Assembly (NCBI GenBank): GCA_963803145.1
Contig: CAWDLW010000032.1
Coordinates: forward strand, 1 to 29,064
Length of the DNA: 29,064 nt
Origin: Methanotrichaceae archaeon
GTDB lineage: Archaea > Halobacteriota > Methanosarcinia > Methanotrichales > Methanotrichaceae
Direction: 5' to 3'
Below, one piece after another: positions 2,283-7,520 of this stretch. Every line of letters starts with the position of its first letter. Position 1 is the first letter of the stretch. Below the pieces are notes generated by a model. The model did no database searches and had not been told where the DNA came from. It was given only the letters and a program-made list of their open reading frames with translations. Made by a program: the position numbers and the translations under genes.

Positions 2283-3800
2283 CTAAGAGATAAAACTTTC
2301 CCCGTCCATGTATGCCTGTTCTGCTGTTCTCACCACCAGCTTCACCAGATCGTCAAGCCTGTCTATGTAGTAAACCTGTCCGAGGCTTCTGAGGGTATTC
2401 TCGACATACTTATCCCTGCCAGCTTGATCGATGCAGAATAGCACGAAATCCCCATGCTGTGCTGCCTCTTTGATATAATCAAACTCTGTATAGAGGTTCT
2501 GGATATGAGTATCTGTAATGCAGAGAATGAGACACCCTTCTCGCGTTCGAGCCAGCTCGAGGATCTCACGCCCAGGTATATGAGTCCTTGTGCATATATA
2601 TTCTACAAGCACGTCTTCCACGGCACTAAGATCGCGCGTCCAAGGCTGAACATAGTATTTCTCGCTGAAGTTTATCGCCGCAACTTCAGCGCCCTGTTGA
2701 TGTGCGAACTGGCAGGCCTTGAAGGCTGCCAAAGTGGCTTTATGGGTCTTTGTGTTAAGGCCATGACCGTTCATGGATTTGCTGCTATCAAGCACAACAA
2801 GCAGGTCAGGAACCCTTTCGCGGCCAGCAGCCATTCGGCCGCATTCTCGCTCACGTTTATAAGTAGTCGTCCCAGGTATCAGCACTGGACTCATGCTCAG
2901 GGAGCAGGCTATATCGAGATCGCTCAGGGGGTCTGTATGCCTCCATTTTACGAGGCCTGAGGGGTAGCAGCTCTCCTTTGTACTTCCACTATGCCTGATC
3001 TCTATGAAGTAGCTCTGGTCACGATACCATCTCTTCAGGTCGCCTTTCAGTCCGAGAACTGCCAGGGCCCGGCTGTACTGTCCGGGCTCAAGTTCAGACG
3101 CTAAGGCTGCTAGAGGAGCAGCATGAGTGCTGCCGTTGAGACTCTCCATCGATCTGACCTGGCCCTTTCCAAGGATGCCAGGCATAAAAGGCTCTAAGAT
3201 TCGTGCGGTCTGTTGGCATTGCCTGCTCCATAAGCCCTTATCTCGGACTCCGGGAGAATAAACTTGTAGCAAAAGGTCAATCTCTGGCTCGTTGCATCTG
3301 GGCAGGTGCAGAGGCGCCCCCCAATATTCTGCCAGAAATCCTATAACGATCCTGTCAAGATTCGATAACTTCTGTTTAGCCAGTCTCCTCCAGCCCAAGA
3401 GAACTTTTTCCTCGTCCTCAGAGCTTCTCTCCAGGCGGAAGGAGTCAACGATGATATCAGAGAATATATTGACCATCGATTTTGCCTTTGCCTGATCCTT
3501 CAGGCCTTTTATCGCTGACAGCGCGAGATAGCCTGCAGTCTCAAGCGAGCGTGGGCAAAACATGTAGTGAATAATAAGATGGTCGAACAAATTTTCGATG
3601 TAGAGAGAGCCCTGTTTTAAGACTTCTTCGTTTAACGTGATTTGATAGTTATCGAATGGAAACTCGCTGCTGCCACGAACGCCTATATGGGGAGCAGGAA
3701 GCTGAGGCCAATGCCAATTGGATCTTGACTTCTCCCAAACGTTAGCTATAGAGTTCCAGGATGTTTCCTCCAAGTCTACCCTCTCCAACCTCAGGCCCAA
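2283..3800 (-). CDS. VWA domain-containing protein
   Basis: C-terminal LLVVLDSSKSM (MIDAS DxSxS), INFS, ILCITD; downstream of MoxR. The true start may be about 3773. Confidence 0.85.
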   Translation of the reverse strand: MGLRLERVDLEETSWNSIANVWEKSRSNWHWPQLPAPHIGVRGSSEFPFDNYQITLNEEVLKQGSLYIENLFDHLIIHYMFCPRSLETAGYLALSAIKGLKDQAKAKSMVNIFSDIIVDSFRLERSSEDEEKVLLGWRRLAKQKLSNLDRIVIGFLAEYWGAPLHLPRCNEPEIDLLLQVYSPGVRDKGLWSRQCQQTARILEPFMPGILGKGQVRSMESLNGSTHAAPLAALASELEPGQYSRALAVLGLKGDLKRWYRDQSYFIEIRHSGSTKESCYPSGLVKWRHTDPLSDLDIACSLSMSPVLIPGTTTYKRERECGRMAAGRERVPDLLVVLDSSKSMNGHGLNTKTHKATLAAFKACQFAHQQGAEVAAINFSEKYYVQPWTRDLSAVEDVLVEYICTRTHIPGREILELARTREGCLILCITDTHIQNLYTEFDYIKEAAQHGDFVLFCIDQAGRDKYVENTLRSLGQVYYIDRLDDLVKLVVRTAEQAYMDGESFIS

Positions 3801-4548
3801 AGGAGCCTCCTTTTATCGATCCGCCCTTCATACGCCAACCCCCACGTCTGCCCGCCCTGCCCATTACTATAATTTCTCCGCCGCTCATCAGAAGCCCTAG
3901 GTAATCACCTGCATCGCCTCGGATGCGTAAGTGGCCTGAGTGCATCAGCCAGCCGGACCGCTCACCTGTGTTTCCTCTTATCGCAATGCTTCCGCCGGAG
4001 TTCCCAACACCTACATATTTGCCCGCATGGCCAAGTACCACGCCCCAGCCTGCACTCATATTCCTGAAGGCGTAATCCCTACAGGAGCCTGTCACTATGC
4101 CGCCCCCGTTCATATCTTGGCCAAGATAATTCCCTGAGTCTCCCTTGATGAAGATCCGGCCTCCGCTCATTCCTTCGCCCACATGATCTCCGCCGCTATC
4201 GAGAACAATTATGCCTTTTTCAAGGCCAATTCCTACATAATCGCCGGATTGGAGTCTCAGTGGCAGGTTAATGCAATCTGCGGCGATGCTTGTAAGATAG
4301 CCCCAGATAATTTTGTACTTCAACTTCTTTCCCGGATCTGACGAGATGAGGCTTAAAAGAAGTTTATCATCTTTAGGTAGAAGCATCTCTACATCTGTCT
4401 TTGAGGGCCTATCTCCCAATCGCTCTGCAAGGTCATCCAGGCCGAAAACGATATTGCCTTTAAAGGTATCGAGCTTTTTGCTTCTTGTTCTGCCCTGGTA
4501 AGCATCATCCATGAAGCGCTTAAGCTTCATTTCATCCTCTCCAGGCAC
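3742..4548 (-). CDS. GXGXG beta-helix protein (GltB domain 3 / FwdC-FmdC-like)
   Basis: Repeated GDxxGxxMxGGxIxxxG units, e.g. GDHVGEGMSGGRIFIKG and GDYLGLLMSGGEIIVMG. Start may be MKLKR at 4530, overlapping the upstream stop. Confidence 0.85.
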   Translation of the reverse strand: MPGEDEMKLKRFMDDAYQGRTRSKKLDTFKGNIVFGLDDLAERLGDRPSKTDVEMLLPKDDKLLLSLISSDPGKKLKYKIIWGYLTSIAADCINLPLRLQSGDYVGIGLEKGIIVLDSGGDHVGEGMSGGRIFIKGDSGNYLGQDMNGGGIVTGSCRDYAFRNMSAGWGVVLGHAGKYVGVGNSGGSIAIRGNTGERSGWLMHSGHLRIRGDAGDYLGLLMSGGEIIVMGRAGRRGGWRMKGGSIKGGSFGPEVGEGRLGGNILELYS

Positions 4549-5783
4549 GGGATGTAATCCAGCCTGGCTATTGGATCGTCGTAGCCGGATAGCTCCTTTA
4601 TGGCATCATGAATGGAGAGGTCTCCGTCTACTGCCTGAGAGAATATCACATTCATCTCGCCCCTCTCATTCAGCGTTCTGTTTATGCTTCTTTCAACGAG
4701 GTCTCTGACATAGTCCAACCTTCTGGTGTCGTAGTATGGCGGCCTATCCAGAGATGAGCGATTGAGATTCACTCTATGCCAGATAACATAAGGTGCGACG
4801 GCTCTCAAAACCTCAATATTGCCTGATCTTCCTGTCAGGAAGGCTATTGCTCTGGTGTAGTCCCTCAGATCCTGTCTAACCCTATCGGAGAGACCTTCAT
4901 CTGTCTGCCAGCATATTGCCTCGGGATTATTGAAATAATGGCAGCCGGCGCAAAGCCCTTTGCTTGGCTTTGTTCCTGATAGCTGAGTTTTGTCGTATTC
5001 GGGTGCACGCTCGCAGAGAGTAAAATCTCTTAAGATCGATACAATTGCTAGTTCGATTGAGGTCTCGAGCTCTACCCCGGATATGCAGATCGGCAGGAGA
5101 TCAAACTCGCTTTTGCTGAACCTCGGCAGCTCCTCCGCCAGATCCCTGACAGCACGCTCTCGCGTCAGAAGCGCAAGGTCTCCCAGGAAATCGGGCTGTA
5201 CGGCTGGCGCACAGGCCGATATACGATCGAGAAGAGCCTCATCCAAGGGGTAAGTCGCACTGAACTCGGGGTTCATTGTAGCGAAATAACATGTATCCCC
5301 AGGCTCAAGCACATTTCCAGCGTATGCTATCGTTCTTTTCTGCAATATTTCTAGGAAGAGATTCTGCTTGCCGCTTGGAAAGCGGTTGATCTCATTTATG
5401 ACCTTCCATTGCGACCTTGTCCATGGTGTCCAGAGAACTTCTGTTGCATCGCTACCTGGCCGAGTCCATTGGCGTGGGTCCAGGAAACCAACGATCTTCT
5501 CCTCAGTCTGCTCAGGATGGCCGGAAACCATAATGTTTTCTATTTCGCCAAAAGATCGGCCCATGAAGGCTGCTCCAAGGAGGTTGACAAGCGTCGTCTT
5601 GTTTGCCCCCATCCCTCCATAGAGAAGCACTGCCTTATTGCGGAGGCATGCGTTTGCCAATGAAAAGTATAGCTGGGCGTTCATACGAGCATTGCCGATG
5701 ATAAGATCTTTCCTGCCTAAATGAAGCCTTAACTCCTCTAAAGATGATATCAGAGCATTTATTTTGCTCAAGGGATCCGGCAT
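4527..5783 (-). CDS. MoxR-like AAA+ ATPase
   Basis: Walker A-like GGMGANKTT, Walker B-like VINEINR, FATMNP, TYPLDEALLDR arginine-finger motif. Confidence 0.88.
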   Translation of the reverse strand: MPDPLSKINALISSLEELRLHLGRKDLIIGNARMNAQLYFSLANACLRNKAVLLYGGMGANKTTLVNLLGAAFMGRSFGEIENIMVSGHPEQTEEKIVGFLDPRQWTRPGSDATEVLWTPWTRSQWKVINEINRFPSGKQNLFLEILQKRTIAYAGNVLEPGDTCYFATMNPEFSATYPLDEALLDRISACAPAVQPDFLGDLALLTRERAVRDLAEELPRFSKSEFDLLPICISGVELETSIELAIVSILRDFTLCERAPEYDKTQLSGTKPSKGLCAGCHYFNNPEAICWQTDEGLSDRVRQDLRDYTRAIAFLTGRSGNIEVLRAVAPYVIWHRVNLNRSSLDRPPYYDTRRLDYVRDLVERSINRTLNERGEMNVIFSQAVDGDLSIHDAIKELSGYDDPIARLDYIPCLERMK

Positions 5784-5805
5784 AAGATGATGGCTAGATC
5801 TGTCG

Positions 5806-5813
5806 TATTTAAA
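5806..5813 (-). promoter_or_regulatory. TATA box of the (probably leaderless) MoxR operon
   Basis: TTTAAATA on the minus strand, 22 nt before ATG 5783. Confidence 0.55.
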
Positions 5814-5839
5814 TCAAACGATGATAACGGTGGGACATG

Positions 5840-5898
5840 AAAAGGAGGGATAGCAAAAGCCAGTAATGTAGGAGGGATAAAGGTACTTGACTTTTGCC
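5840..5898 (-). ncRNA. Putative small hairpin RNA, copy 1
   Basis: GGCAAAAGUC..GGCUUUUGCU stem with G-U pairs, loop containing AUCCCUCCU, pyrimidine tail. Own promoter CCGAAAAG-TTTATAAT (5936-5921). Confidence 0.7.
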
Positions 5899-5981
5899 AA
5901 ACGTAATACGTCACTCGACGATTATAAACTTTTCGGCTAAGGCGATCGACGTATTCTGTGATAGTCTATGCCTTTTGTGAT

Positions 5982-6039
5982 AGAAGAAGGAAGCAAAAGT
6001 CGATTTTGTGGGAGGGATTGATCACATTCGACTTTTGCC
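5982..6039 (-). ncRNA. Putative small hairpin RNA, copy 2
   Basis: GGCAAAAGUCGA..UCGACUUUUGCU stem, loop AUCAAUCCCUCC, tail UCCUUCUUCU. Own promoter CCGAAGCT-CTTATATC (6077-6062). Confidence 0.7.
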
Positions 6040-6099
6040 AGCGCGCATTACGACATAAGACGATATAAGAGCTTCGGTTGGATTTGAAATTTAAGTACT

Positions 6100-6157
6100 A
6101 AGGAGGGGGAGCAAAAGTCAAAGGAACTAGAAGGATCTGTATCAATCGACTTTTGCC
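6100..6157 (-). ncRNA. Putative small hairpin RNA, copy 3
   Basis: GGCAAAAGUCGA..UUGACUUUUGCU stem, loop containing AUCCUUCU, tail CCCCCUCCUU. Own promoter CCGAAAAC-TATATATT (6196-6181). Confidence 0.7.
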
Positions 6158-6581
6158 AACCAATACAACGACGTTGAGCGAATATATAGTTTTCGGTGAT
6201 CAACGTAGTAAGCCTGAAATTTCAGATCAAAAGGTATGTGGATGGCAGAGGTGAATAGAATAGTGAATACTACCTTAACGTATCTTTGTAATTACTCATA
6301 CGGCATGAGACGAATACTTATCTCTTAAGCTTGTCAAAATAGAACATAAGCGGAATGTATAAATTCGGCCATTGTCGTAATAGTATTGCTGTCAAAGTTG
6401 GCTAATCCCTTATAATACGGATGTATCGGTTTTGAAGTAATCTATTAGCCATCTCACCTTGAACGGTAAATGATCACTCTAGCAAAAAAACCGTTTACAT
6501 TTGAAGGTGTAGGAACTGAACCAAGTATCGGTGTAGGCACTGACAAAGAATATTAAGCCCAATAAACAGAACTATACTAAC

Positions 6582-7520
6582 ATGATCTATACCATCACCC
6601 TAAACCCAGCATTAGACAGAACAATCAGGATCGATAGAATTCGCGAGGATGTATCCAATCGTATCCTAGAGGAACAGAGCTACGCTGGCGGCAAAAGCAT
6701 AGATGTCTCCAAGGTCCTGAAGAATTTCGGCGTCGATAATACTGCTCTGGGGTTTGTGGGTGGGTTCGCAGGCAGGGAGCTTGAGGGAAGACTGCTCAAT
6801 GAGGGGATACAAAGCGATTTTGTATATGTCTCGGGAGAGACAAGGACGAACATAATCATCCATGAGACGGAGACTGGCAGGCAACTGGCCTTCAATGCGC
6901 GAGGGCCTGTAGTTCAGCCTCATGAGCTTATGCAGCTTATAGAGATGGTACAGAATCTTAAGAACCCTGAGATTGTTGCCATCGGAGGCAGCCTTCCGCC
7001 TGGAGTAACCCCTGAAATATATCGCAAAATCATAACTCTTGTAAAGAGGCTTAAGGCAAAGGTGGTGCTGGATGTTGATGGCAGCGCCCTTAAGGTTGGA
7101 ATCCAGGCTCAGCCAAATATCATCAAACCGAACATCCACGAGCTCAGCGAGCTTGTAGGCCGGGAGTTGAATGAATTAGAGGCAATACGCGCTGCCGCCA
7201 GGGAGATCCATCGAGGCGGCGTAGAAATCGTCCTTGTCTCCATGGGCGGGAAAGGAATTCTCATGGTGAAGGATGGCCTTGAGTGCCTGGCTGTTCCGCC
7301 TGATGTACCTGTCAGAAATACTATAGGCGCTGGTGATTCAGCAGTTGCGGGATTTATTTTTGGTATTGTAAAAGGCGAAGATCCCAAGAGATCGCTGATG
7401 TATGCTGCAGCATCTGGCACTTCTACTACACTAAGCCTAGGCACGGCGCTATGTCAGAAGGATGATTTCGAGAGGATACTCCCACAAGTGAAGCTTGAAA
7501 TGCTAACGGACGGTGAATGA
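6582..7520 (+). CDS. pfkB: 1-phosphofructokinase / PfkB-family hexose-phosphate kinase
   Basis: MIYTITLNPALD, GGKSIDVS, GETRTN, GSLPPGV, IKPNIHEL, NTIGAGDS. Confidence 0.92.
   Translation: MIYTITLNPALDRTIRIDRIREDVSNRILEEQSYAGGKSIDVSKVLKNFGVDNTALGFVGGFAGRELEGRLLNEGIQSDFVYVSGETRTNIIIHETETGRQLAFNARGPVVQPHELMQLIEMVQNLKNPEIVAIGGSLPPGVTPEIYRKIITLVKRLKAKVVLDVDGSALKVGIQAQPNIIKPNIHELSELVGRELNELEAIRAAAREIHRGGVEIVLVSMGGKGILMVKDGLECLAVPPDVPVRNTIGAGDSAVAGFIFGIVKGEDPKRSLMYAAASGTSTTLSLGTALCQKDDFERILPQVKLEMLTDGE

Follow-up and report, generated by a model that had tools for sequence, protein, structure and literature searches.

What are the three repeats that lie on the minus strand, directly upstream of an AAA ATPase gene, in this 29,064-nt stretch of archaeal DNA (the window, below, means the whole stretch analysed)? 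The original prediction saw in them an array of hairpin RNA genes with a fixed scaffold and a variable, CU-rich loop. Reading the sequence bears out the layout that it described: in each unit, a BRE/TATA-like promoter stands 38–39 nt upstream of a hairpin of 47–48 nt, in which a 10-bp stem (GGCAAAAGUC/GRCUUUUGC) encloses a CU-rich loop and is followed by a CCUCC-type tail (Table 1). The unit loops contain AUCCUUCU, AUCCCUCCC and AUCCCUCCU, all tails are pyrimidine-rich, and the units are spaced 118–141 nt apart. Allowing one mismatch, the GGCAAAAGUC 10-mer occurs six times in the window, five of these within 5889–6157, compared with 1.64 occurrences expected; a count of six was reached by 1 of 100 shuffles. 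As judged from their sequence, the three repeats encode hairpin RNAs of about 60 bases that form an uncatalogued family.

Table 1. Positions of the array units and neighbouring genes in the window.
Feature	Position	Strand	Details
Unit 1 promoter region	6161–6196	−	CCGAA 6196–6192 (offset to hairpin 39 nt); TATA-like CTATATAT 6189–6182; conserved spacer TCGCTCAACGTCGTT 6181–6167
Unit 1 hairpin	6110–6157	−	48 nt; 5' arm GGCAAAAGUC 6157–6148 (first G 6157); loop with AUCCUUCUAG; 3' arm GACUUUUGCU 6119–6110; MFE −18.8 kcal/mol, z −4.5; model R1 49.1 bits, E 7.4e-8
Unit 1 3' tail	6097–6109	−	CCCCCUCCUUAGU; CCUCC motif present (sequence read)
Unit 2 promoter region	6043–6077	−	CCGAA 6077–6073 (offset 38 nt); TATA-like CTTATAT 6069–6063; spacer CGTCTTATGTCGTAA 6062–6048
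Unit 2 hairpin	5992–6039	−	48 nt; first G 6039; loop with AAUCCCUCCCACA; MFE −19.3 kcal/mol, z −6.5; model R1 62.6 bits, E 5.1e-11
Unit 2 3' tail	5979–5991	−	UCCUUCUUCUAUC; pyrimidine-rich, without exact CCUCC (sequence read)
Unit 3 promoter region	5902–5936	−	CCGAA 5936–5932 (offset 38 nt); TATA-like TTTATAAT 5928–5921; spacer CGTCGAGTGACGTA 5920–5907; fits operator-like pattern
Unit 3 hairpin	5852–5898	−	47 nt; first G 5898; loop with UAUCCCUCCUACAUUAC; 3' arm GGCUUUUGCU, giving a U-G pair; MFE −14.7 kcal/mol, z −4.5; model R1 57.3 bits, E 9.1e-10
Unit 3 3' tail	5839–5851	−	AUCCCUCCUUUUC; CCUCC then U4, the putative termination site
AAA_5-type ATPase gene	4527–5783	−	Directly downstream of array; Pfam AAA_5, E 2e-5; syntenic neighbour, no demonstrated role in the RNA system
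PfkB-family kinase gene (1-phosphofructokinase-like)	6582–7520	+	Divergent neighbour on the array's other side

Folded as minus-strand RNA, the three units were matched by none of 200 shuffles, and their plus-strand versions fold more weakly (z −2.2, −3.7 and −0.2). A G2-U pair is present in all three units, with an additional U-G pair in unit 3. The original prediction had pointed out that such pairs are G-U on the minus strand and A-C on the plus strand, a pattern that holds in the three units and throughout the family. In an alignment of 57 sequences from two families (A3), six of the ten core stem pairs are invariant; the 35 non-consensus stem cells comprise 31 G-U pairs, 3 A-U pairs and 1 unpaired position, and those 31 turn into A-C mismatches if read on the opposite strand. 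Covariance-model scores on the reverse strand are also far lower (for example, 24 versus 60 bits). The strand is fixed, in agreement with the earlier call, by two features: read in the proposed direction, the stem departs from Watson-Crick pairing almost only through G-U pairs, and the promoter stands on the corresponding side of the hairpin. Covariation, put forward as a check, is weak, since there is hardly any variation in the stem: shuffles reached the observed score in 0 of 500 cases for A3 and 11 of 500 for alignment A1, but in 94 of 500 (not significant) for alignment A4, which is biased in that many of its loci were retrieved through the exact stem pattern.

These observations also bear on whether the repeats are elements of the DNA itself, either MITE-like mobile repeats or palindromic sites for protein binding or recombination, with only incidental RNA-like features. 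Such elements would fit a copy number of 2 to 19 per genome, a dispersed and sometimes tandem placement, and arms that in many copies are perfectly palindromic. A mobile repeat would be recognised by terminal inverted repeats, target-site duplications and insertion polymorphism. However, in a wide alignment of 16 copies the unit borders carry no such inverted repeats, no transposase is linked, and the loci are syntenic across genera and fall into orthologous subfamilies; the candidate of a mobile repeat was rejected on the alignment and the synteny. Arm-to-arm spacing ranges from 18 to about 50 nt across copies, which speaks against a dimeric site in the DNA, and selection at the DNA level does not predict stem deviations that are nearly all G-U on one strand. 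We disfavour a DNA-level element and consider it very improbable.

A scan of Methanotrichaceae genomes with a covariance model, as the original prediction had suggested, found the family throughout. Model R1 identified 18 sense-strand copies in the organism's own genome, and matches were obtained in 24 of 24 and then in 74 of 74 genomes of the family, with 2–18 copies per genome under model R2 or 2–19 under R1, so that the proposal of an RNA family with a fixed scaffold stands. In four other families of the class, 36 of 76 genomes contain a single copy (31/67 in f3, 3/4 in f4, 2/2 in f5 and 0/3 in f2); a covariance-model search of 132 genomes from 24 other families of the phylum found none. 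Named records among the matches are Methanothrix, Methanosaeta and Methanotrichaceae, together with Methanolobus and ANME-2. Two f3 genera with large genomes, which may be Methanosarcina, yielded no copy in 18 and 6 genomes, respectively. The stem is retained in the f4, f5 and ANME-2 copies. A stem of invariant sequence across families is not needed by base-pairing regulators; the invariance points to a protein partner or to a promoter-proximal constraint. The single-copy Methanolobus homolog may be among the 195 sRNAs reported from a dRNA-seq study of Methanolobus psychrophilus (PMC5378194).

The suggestion that the hairpins belong to no known family agrees with our database and literature searches. 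At gathering thresholds, Rfam 15 matched only a tRNA at 2189–2260 in the whole window; with E values up to 10, the region 5500–6600 gave three snoRNA-type matches of 13.7–17.6 bits, against cut-offs of 42–60, and none on the hairpins. The literature search returned no description of the hairpin family and none on small RNAs in Methanothrix or Methanosaeta; for the stem 10-mer strings, only unrelated primers appeared among the matches listed. At minimum, this is an RNA family new to Rfam, for which over 140 sequences and a working covariance model are available.

Several known classes were considered and rejected. C/D box sRNAs have a C box (RUGAUGA) near the 5' end, a D box (CUGA) near the 3' end, a K-turn and internal C'/D' boxes; by eye, such boxes are not in register in any unit, and no C/D family reached threshold. 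H/ACA sRNAs combine a K-turn or K-loop with a pseudouridylation pocket inside the hairpin and carry an ACA box downstream of it, whereas the three units and the consensus have a continuous stem without a pocket and a CU-rich tail after the 3' arm. A CRISPR array, in which direct repeats of one length alternate with unique spacers of one length and no unit has its own promoter, is inconsistent with 10-mers that are inverted rather than direct, a promoter for each unit, the spacing between units and the many solitary copies. Membership of the Cuckoo RNAs (CcsR, alpha-r14) was dismissed given one hairpin per gene, an invariant stem, the loop core UCCCUCCUAC and the lack of an Rfam match.

How, then, would the hairpins be expressed? 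The BRE/TATA assignment was made by comparison with the archaeal consensus. This layout, with its conserved spacer, is found upstream of 16 own-genome copies and likewise of copies in other genera; the distance from promoter to hairpin is fixed, and the inner units of tandem arrays each have their own BRE/TATA. A transcribed mini-hairpin in the spacer (CGNC-N4-GNCG) was rejected by eye, its third pair showing no covariation among the copies compared. From these motifs we infer that the hairpin RNAs are transcribed, and where they start and end. Each unit would be an independent gene for a non-coding RNA of about 60–65 nt, with promoter and spacer setting the start at or beside the first G of GGCAAAAGUC; the predicted 5' ends fall at or 1 nt before GGCAAAAG (6158/6157, 6040/6039 and 5899/5898). 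The RNA would open with one strand of a 10–12-bp stem, closed by GACUUUUGCC, and a short unpaired tail would form its 3' end, with termination probably in the U run behind CCUCC, at about 6100, 5985 and 5842. Termination is not clear-cut, because a run of four or more T within 25 nt of the stem occurs in only 74 of 204 collected copies.

The genomic surroundings raise the alternative that the units act in cis, as a leader, attenuator or insulator for the downstream gene (an AAA ATPase operon) or as 3' modules of a non-coding element of ~560 nt that precedes some hairpin copies. The AAA ATPase gene adjoins family hairpins in 12 other loci (tblastn), with synteny that spans genera and argues for vertical inheritance, and in the syntenic loci the array is always immediately upstream of this gene and co-oriented with it. 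The PfkB gene flanks the array in six other loci. Among the eight best loci of the 560-nt element, for which Rfam returned nothing, a hairpin follows directly on the same strand in six and lies ~1 kb downstream, behind a partial element copy, in a seventh; moreover, the hairpin and its U-rich tail resemble a terminator. A cis role nevertheless has to contend with the separate promoters at fixed distance, those of inner tandem units included, and with the ATPase gene's own TATA-like box, ~23 nt before the ATG and without a Shine-Dalgarno (SD) sequence on reading the DNA. Furthermore, several own-genome copies have a convergent gene downstream or no gene nearby, and the single-copy forms are convergent to an SSF transporter gene. 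We judge action in cis to be improbable. Between the array and pfkB, a plus-strand promoter of the same type as those of the units is present at 6358–6391. The RNA predicted to follow it folds no better than shuffles (z −0.47), five syntenic loci do not conserve this promoter type ahead of pfkB, and the region 6200–6580 has no blastn match in the other loci; Rfam returned nothing for three other loci with this promoter type.

The original prediction likened the loops to the anti-SD tail of 16S rRNA, and the comparison holds for the 3' end of the organism's own 16S rRNA (GGAUCACCUCCUAA), which is resembled both by the loop core, AUCCCUCCUACAUC, and by the tail, CUCCCUCCUU. Described previously as a pyrimidine stretch, the tail is indeed one, but it also forms a separate conserved motif, with the family consensus CtcCCtccTt (CUCCCUCCUU). 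The loops vary less than claimed: their centre is a conserved motif, uuu.UCCCUCCuaCauc, common to paralogs and to orthologs in other genera, which extends past CCUCC and, apart from a gap of one base, agrees with the 16S end AUC(A)CCUCCUA. The preferred distance of CCUCC from the 3' arm is 8–10 nt. Among 125 copies with a TATA-like promoter, CCUCC occurs in loop or tail of 111 and in both of 82. Anti-SD sRNAs carry an unpaired motif that is complementary to the organism's SD and so resembles the 16S 3' tail, and by predicted accessibility the present RNAs share this feature: the mean unpaired probability is 0.949 for loop CCUCC, compared with 0.794 for other loop 5-mers, and 0.878 for the whole 10-nt tail. 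The loop and tail of unit 3 have copies at 0.85–0.88 identity in other genomes, some of them known as other genera, and its tail is found identical in other genera. Certain subfamilies have a loop or tail of their own that persists from genus to genus, which leaves room for limited specialisation. The single-copy forms of the other families retain a related loop core; those of f3, f4 and f5 have no CCUCC tail, and f3 and f5 loops carry CCCCUC rather than CCUCC, so the ancestral role may not be SD pairing.

Searches for targets gave no extended complement of the loop in the own genome. Exact complements of 11–14 nt to the loops of 16 of 17 units, sought over 8.2 million positions, occurred at a level judged to be chance; a few fall on SD or start regions, as they would for any CCUCC sequence. 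At up to two mismatches, the 14-nt loop core has 42 complementary sites in the genome (6 of them in the hairpin genes themselves), compared with 29 for the reversed control. G-U-tolerant 12-mer patterns matched only the hairpin genes themselves and the start of one small ORF (C42:34754), and had no match near the two 16S 3' ends. The conserved loop motif is longer than SD pairing requires, yet has no extended complement in the genome. The idea of a variable, guide-like segment is only partly supported: the subfamilies that keep their own loop or tail would fit it, but the conserved core and the missing extended target speak against it.

GGAGG is found 4–11 nt upstream of 213 of 2,971 crude ORF starts in the own genome, so that SD-led initiation exists there for a subset of starts. 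On our best reading, the RNAs would mimic the anti-SD tail, masking ribosome-binding sites or titrating tail-binding factors, and they probably act on the start of translation. Each RNA would display two unpaired near-copies of the 16S 3' tail, one in the loop and one in the tail. Their most likely action would be to pair with purine-rich SD sequences of mRNAs and thereby block 30S binding, with the many gene copies acting additively. We assign a probability of about one half to this reading, in which the units are independent sRNA genes whose RNAs pair with SD sequences.

Alternatively, the RNAs could be made as proposed but act mainly through protein: a specific RNA-binding protein could hold them by the invariant stem, or loop and tail could serve as decoys that draw off factors recognising the 16S tail. 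What changes would then be the maturation of ribosomes or the supply of initiation factors, not the fate of particular mRNAs. Candidates would be the KH protein aDim2p and the D-site nuclease Nob1, along with Sm-like proteins on the U-rich end. The invariant stem pairs, the persistence of the stem in f4, f5 and ANME-2, the loop motif that reaches beyond CCUCC, the preferred placement of CCUCC and the missing extended RNA target would all suit a protein partner. Multicopy RNAs with repeated loop motifs typify protein titration, as discussed for CsrB/Rsm in the paper on LhrC (PMC4132741). However, no RNA-binding gene was found linked to the loci, whose neighbours are metabolic or of unknown kind, and the stem might instead stay invariant because the initially transcribed sequence is itself constrained, in addition to having to pair. 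A chiefly protein-mediated action seems to us rather unlikely, and SD pairing remains the preferred reading.

Small RNAs of comparable action provide a frame for SD pairing. The bacterial RsaE/RoxS and streptococcal csRNAs carry C-rich or anti-SD motifs in unpaired regions, and the csRNAs comprise several paralogs, each under the same regulator-dependent promoter; to our knowledge, they resemble the present family in these motifs and are unrelated to it in sequence and architecture. In Listeria monocytogenes, lhrC1-4 are arranged in tandem. LhrC1-5 (PMC4132741) are multicopy sRNAs under one regulator whose CU-rich UCCC motifs bind the G-rich SD region; like our hairpins, they are encoded by homologous gene copies, present redundant CU motifs in loops and single-stranded stretches, and have been proposed to act additively. 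LhrC, however, is bacterial, about twice as long and built of two stem-loops whose stems are not an invariant handle; it has no sequence homology to the present family, which has CCUCC in one loop and the 3' tail, and its targets and expression have been shown by experiment, whereas those of the present RNAs are predicted. The Cuckoo RNAs (CcsR1-4) of Alphaproteobacteria (PMC4615179) have 2–4 adjacent hairpins per RNA, with CCUCCUCCC in all loops and highly variable stems. They share with our family hairpin loops with one anti-SD-like motif, often several hairpins in a row, but in our family each gene has one hairpin and its own promoter, the stem is near-invariant and a second motif lies in the 3' tail. 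Within the class Methanosarcinia, anti-RBS sRNAs have been described from Methanosarcina, namely sRNA41 and sRNA154 of M. mazei, which a review (PMC5867862) presents as intergenic, with proposed RBS masking. They differ in being longer, single- or two-copy RNAs with defined targets (ACDS, glnA2).

A more far-reaching scenario would make the family an ancient, class-wide mimic of the 16S 3' end, consisting of a helix, an anti-SD tail and a loop that copies AUC-CCUCCUA. Present as a single copy in the ancestor of Methanosarcinia, it would have expanded in Methanotrichaceae to up to 19 genes under common control. There it would set the global balance between SD-led and leaderless initiation, or gate maturation of the small subunit, by vying with the tail of the ribosome itself for SD sequences or tail-binding factors; a dedicated protein would recognise the RNA through its invariant stem, and one regulator would use the TATA-to-start spacer as its operator. 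We offer this as an unlikely, speculative extension.

In wetlands, rice soils and digesters, Methanothrix is one of the main producers of methane from acetate, and archaea of this type are slow-growing and hard to study. The family offers a defined test of anti-SD mimic action among archaea, which use SD-led and leaderless initiation side by side, and its single-copy homologs in cultured Methanolobus-like relatives may allow knockout. With up to 19 copies, a place in every Methanotrichaceae genome searched, and promoter and stem conserved across families, these hairpins are strong candidates for a central role in post-transcriptional regulation.

Read on the minus strand, positions 5600-6500 contain three units of one common build, in which CCGAA lies 39, 38 and 38 nt from the stem (units 1, 2 and 3) and the hairpins are 48, 48 and 47 nt long; layout, offsets and hairpin lengths are thus as the original prediction described them. 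Within the window, the stem 10-mer occurs six times with at most one mismatch against 1.64 expected, five of these inside 5889-6157. The minus-strand RNAs are predicted to fold at -18.8, -19.3 and -14.7 kcal/mol (z -4.5, -6.5 and -4.5), with none of 200 shuffles as good, and the plus-strand versions fold less well (z -2.2, -3.7 and -0.2). A search of the whole window against Rfam at gathering thresholds returned a single tRNA away from the hairpins, and at E up to 10 none of the three hairpins matched any known family, as had been supposed.

Features of the hairpin array and of associated loci (C-numbers, contigs of the window's own genome; L-numbers, retrieved loci; other positions, window)
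Feature	Location	Strand	Description
CCGAA	starts 6196, 6077, 5936	-	then AT-rich TATA-like box and ~22 nt spacer
5' stem arm GGCAAAAGUC	starts 6157, 6039, 5898	-	after promoter spacer
Rest of each unit		-	27-28 nt loop, then GRCUUUUGCU, then pyrimidine tail
Family-type promoter copy	6358-6391	+	TATAAAT and spacer TCGGCCATTGTCGTA, towards pfkB at 6582
AAA_5 ATPase	2283-5783 cluster	-	418 aa, without NCBIfam name
GXGXG / FwdC-like protein	2283-5783 cluster	-	268 aa, below FwdC cut-off
505-aa protein	2283-5783 cluster	-	0 Pfam, 0 NCBIfam matches
Divergent member	C5:10838 (L208)	-	stem GGCAAAGGCC
Divergent member	C15:233991-234079	+	55-nt loop; 34.6 bits with model R1
Promoter before hairpin GCCGUUAGGAGAAACGGC	C27:141923 (L206)	-	BRE/TATA/spacer
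Promoter before hairpin GCCGUAAGAUAAAACGGC	C49:40120 (L207)	-	BRE/TATA/spacer
Single-copy homologue	L047 1501-1584	+	convergent to sodium:solute symporter (SSF) gene
Single-copy homologue	L051 1501-1581	-	convergent to sodium:solute symporter (SSF) gene
Loop-core complement GAUGUAGGAGGGA	C42:34754	-	12-13 nt, perfect
~560-nt element	C18:129289-129889	-	
~560-nt element	C42:11436-12027	+	
~560-nt element	C17:1647-2160	-	

The units belong to a dispersed family rather than a local repeat. In the window's own genome, the exact stem pattern is found at 11 places, compared with none for a reversed control, and a relaxed pattern gave 37 matches, which reduce to 16 units on removal of reverse-strand duplicates and five unrelated matches. 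Conservation in the 16-unit alignment spans about -45 to about +75, in the order aaCCGAAA, TATA, spacer TCGnCnAnTGnCGTA, stem, loop, stem and CUCCCUCCUU. Because CUCCCUCCUU recurs, what had been called a pyrimidine tail is indeed pyrimidine-rich but is also a conserved motif. A covariance model built from these copies (R1) recovered 18 sense-strand copies at E 1.8e-4 or better, scoring 50-60 bits against 19-24 bits on the reverse strand of the same places; the count could be slightly inflated, as the assembly (99.3% complete) has 6.8% contamination. Two genomes of the window's genus yielded 14-15 matches each. Two divergent members, one with a long loop and one missed by both R1 and a broader model (R2) and found through the TATA and spacer pattern, make the family somewhat larger than the model counts.

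The spacer between TATA and start is conserved across genera. The TATA and spacer pattern gives 16 matches at 14 places in the own genome, 10 of them preceding family hairpins, and this spacer may act as the operator of a small regulon. At L206 and L207, two of the remaining places, the same promoter stands before unrelated short 5' hairpins, neither locus matching Rfam, which are followed by a TPR-like and an EPSP-synthase-like gene (named from a reading of the translations); this hints at a small regulon under one operator. Five syntenic loci show no conservation of the plus-strand promoter copy facing pfkB, which is also one of the 14 places, and at z -0.47 the RNA predicted downstream of it folds no better than shuffles. 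This copy may represent the promoter of pfkB or else an inverted unit of the family that has decayed.

In an alignment of 57 sequences (A3), six of the ten core stem pairs are invariant, and the 35 non-consensus cells of the other four comprise 31 G-U, 3 A-U (a G-C to A-U change at the closing pair) and 1 unpaired. Read from the other strand, the 31 G-U cells become A-C mismatches, so the strand argument first drawn from the three units holds across the wider alignment. The near-invariance of the stem leaves little covariation within the family: the score exceeds all 500 shuffles in A3 but only 489 of 500 in A1, and it is not significant in A4 (94 of 500 shuffles as high), an alignment biased towards the unchanged stem by the many loci that an exact-pattern scan contributed to it. 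Taken together, the one-sided G-U changes, the promoter's location and the far lower reverse-strand scores fix which strand is the RNA strand, and they favour RNA-level selection.

The homologues anticipated in relatives were found. R1 matched all 24 genomes searched from the window's family, Methanotrichaceae (16 genera, 2-19 matches per genome), 9 of 13 genomes of another family of the class, f3 (a single match in every case), and none of 3 genomes from a third family. R2, built from 57 sequences, matched 74/74 Methanotrichaceae genomes and, in other families of the class, 31/67 (f3), 3/4 (f4), 2/2 (f5) and 0/3 (f2), always in single copy except for one genome with two. Matches in f3 are confined to three genera (8/9, 17/17 and 6/6 genomes), with none in five other f3 genera, including two with large genomes (0/18 and 0/6); outside the class, 132 genomes from 24 families of the phylum gave no match. 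The exact stem pattern occurs at 80 or more loci in genomes of named species. Among the matches listed, 55 of 80 belong to records named Methanothrix, Methanosaeta, Methanotrichaceae or Methanosarcinales, with two Methanolobus, one ANME-2 and one 'Methanobacteriota archaeon' in that number, so the original attribution to Methanotrichaceae is right. The remaining 25 are scattered over bacterial records; by our own arithmetic, chance alone would give this pattern about that often in 596 Gb.

Queried with the window's neighbours, tblastn located 12 further loci where the AAA_5 ATPase gene adjoins family hairpins; in 6, the PfkB gene flanks the array on its other side. The 12 include eight from the other genomes searched, seven in genera beyond the window's (g7, g9, g10, g11, g13 twice, and g16) and one in genus g2; AAA_5-linked arrays hold 3-5 units each. 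Moreover, for several own-genome copies the nearest relative by loop and tail is a copy in another genome rather than any paralogue (identities 0.91 versus 0.72, 0.88 versus 0.76 and 0.89 versus 0.70), and orthologous subfamilies therefore exist, one of them without CCUCC in its loop (AGCCUGUCUCUACCUC). Cross-genus synteny, these subfamilies and the lack of terminal inverted repeats at unit borders in a wide alignment of copies disfavour a mobile repeat. That the units act as DNA-level elements is highly improbable, given the synteny, the one-sided G-U changes and an inter-arm distance ranging from 18 to about 50 nt across copies, a range that a dimeric DNA-binding site would not tolerate.

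The genes flanking other own-genome copies are heterogeneous and often convergent, which disfavours a general 5'-leader role and makes cis-acting functions quite unlikely. The homologues at L047 and L051, from two genera of a sister family, share the convergent symporter gene and differ in their remaining neighbours, DUF2117 in one and a split metallo-beta-lactamase-fold gene in the other. Downstream of the window's array lies a conserved gene cluster, of which the AAA_5 ATPase gene, with a TATA-like box ~23 nt before its ATG and without a Shine-Dalgarno (SD) sequence, looks leaderless.

For motif analysis, 204 regex-collected copies were reduced to 125 with a TATA-like hexamer 24-36 nt upstream, a filter that removes bacterial chance matches and wrongly oriented ones. 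CCUCC is present in the loop or tail of 111 of the 125 and in both in 82; the loop logo of these copies is uuu.UCCCUCCuaCauc, with CCUCC usually 8-10 nt before the 3' arm. The predicted mean unpaired probability is 0.949 for the loop CCUCC, compared with 0.794 for other loop 5-mers, and 0.878 for the tail as a whole. The own-genome 16S rRNA ends in GGAUCACCUCCUAA, and the loop core AUCCCUCCUA is this end minus one base, which substantiates the likeness to the anti-SD tail noted originally; stem and tail recall helix 45 and the anti-SD tail. By crude start calling, 213 of 2971 ATG starts in this genome have GGAGG 4-11 nt upstream, so a subset of its genes uses SD-led initiation. The stem is retained in the single-copy forms from f3, f4, f5 and ANME-2, as is a loop core of related sequence (CCUCCUAUAUCCCG, CCCCUCAUAUCCCG, CCCCUCUAAACUUCCG), and the CCUCC tail is absent; the promoter of these forms is of the family type in f3 and f4, with a different AT-rich upstream sequence in f5 and ANME-2.

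The best-supported reading, to which we assign a probability of about one half, is that the units encode anti-SD-tail mimics. Each gene would be transcribed independently into an RNA of ~60-65 nt that would pair with SD regions, and the many copies would act additively, as reported for LhrC1-5 of Listeria (PMC4132741). The same mechanism has been proposed for Methanosarcina sRNA41 and sRNA154 (review PMC5867862).

Nevertheless, the conserved loop motif is longer than SD pairing requires and has no extended complement anywhere in the own genome, rRNA operons included; per-loop complement searches of that genome stay at chance level, and from family to family the stem sequence does not vary. These observations argue against the simple SD-pairing version and for the main rival, considerably less probable than mimicry of the anti-SD tail, in which the RNA would act through protein, either by presenting its stem to a specific binding protein or by serving as a decoy for factors on the 16S 3' tail, for which aDim2p, Nob1 and Sm-like proteins are candidates. 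Outside RNA genes the loop core has a single perfect complement, which is located 2 kb away from C42:36798, a family gene, and precedes by 5 nt the start codon (ATG) of a small ORF (~67 codons); it could be due to chance.

Outside the window, the own genome holds a multicopy non-coding element of ~560 nt with its own TATA-like box (loci L192/L193). It is predicted to fold at -224.5 kcal/mol (z -4.5), has stops in all six frames and inter-copy mismatches without codon periodicity (32/27/26), and has no match in Rfam. Of 40 other family genomes, 19 contain it, with a maximum of 13 matches in any one of them, and it is present in 9 of 16 genera, the window's own counted. A family hairpin gene directly follows it on the same strand in 6 of the 8 best loci, and in the own genome a small MC1-like gene precedes the element. 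It could represent a large ncRNA of unknown type, or else a mobile element that has no ORF.

A literature search found no description of the family, although subscription papers or supplements might contain one. Functionally closest are LhrC1-5, the cuckoo/CcsR RNAs (PMC4615179) and M. mazei sRNA41. In contrast to these, each gene of the present family has a single hairpin and a promoter of its own, with a second motif in the 3' tail; the family's invariant stem and semi-conserved loop reverse the arrangement of the cuckoo/CcsR RNAs. The present family is also archaeal, conserved across the class and amplified in one taxonomic family. The hairpins constitute a real, well-conserved and uncatalogued sRNA family, whose expression is putative and whose function we infer from sequence.
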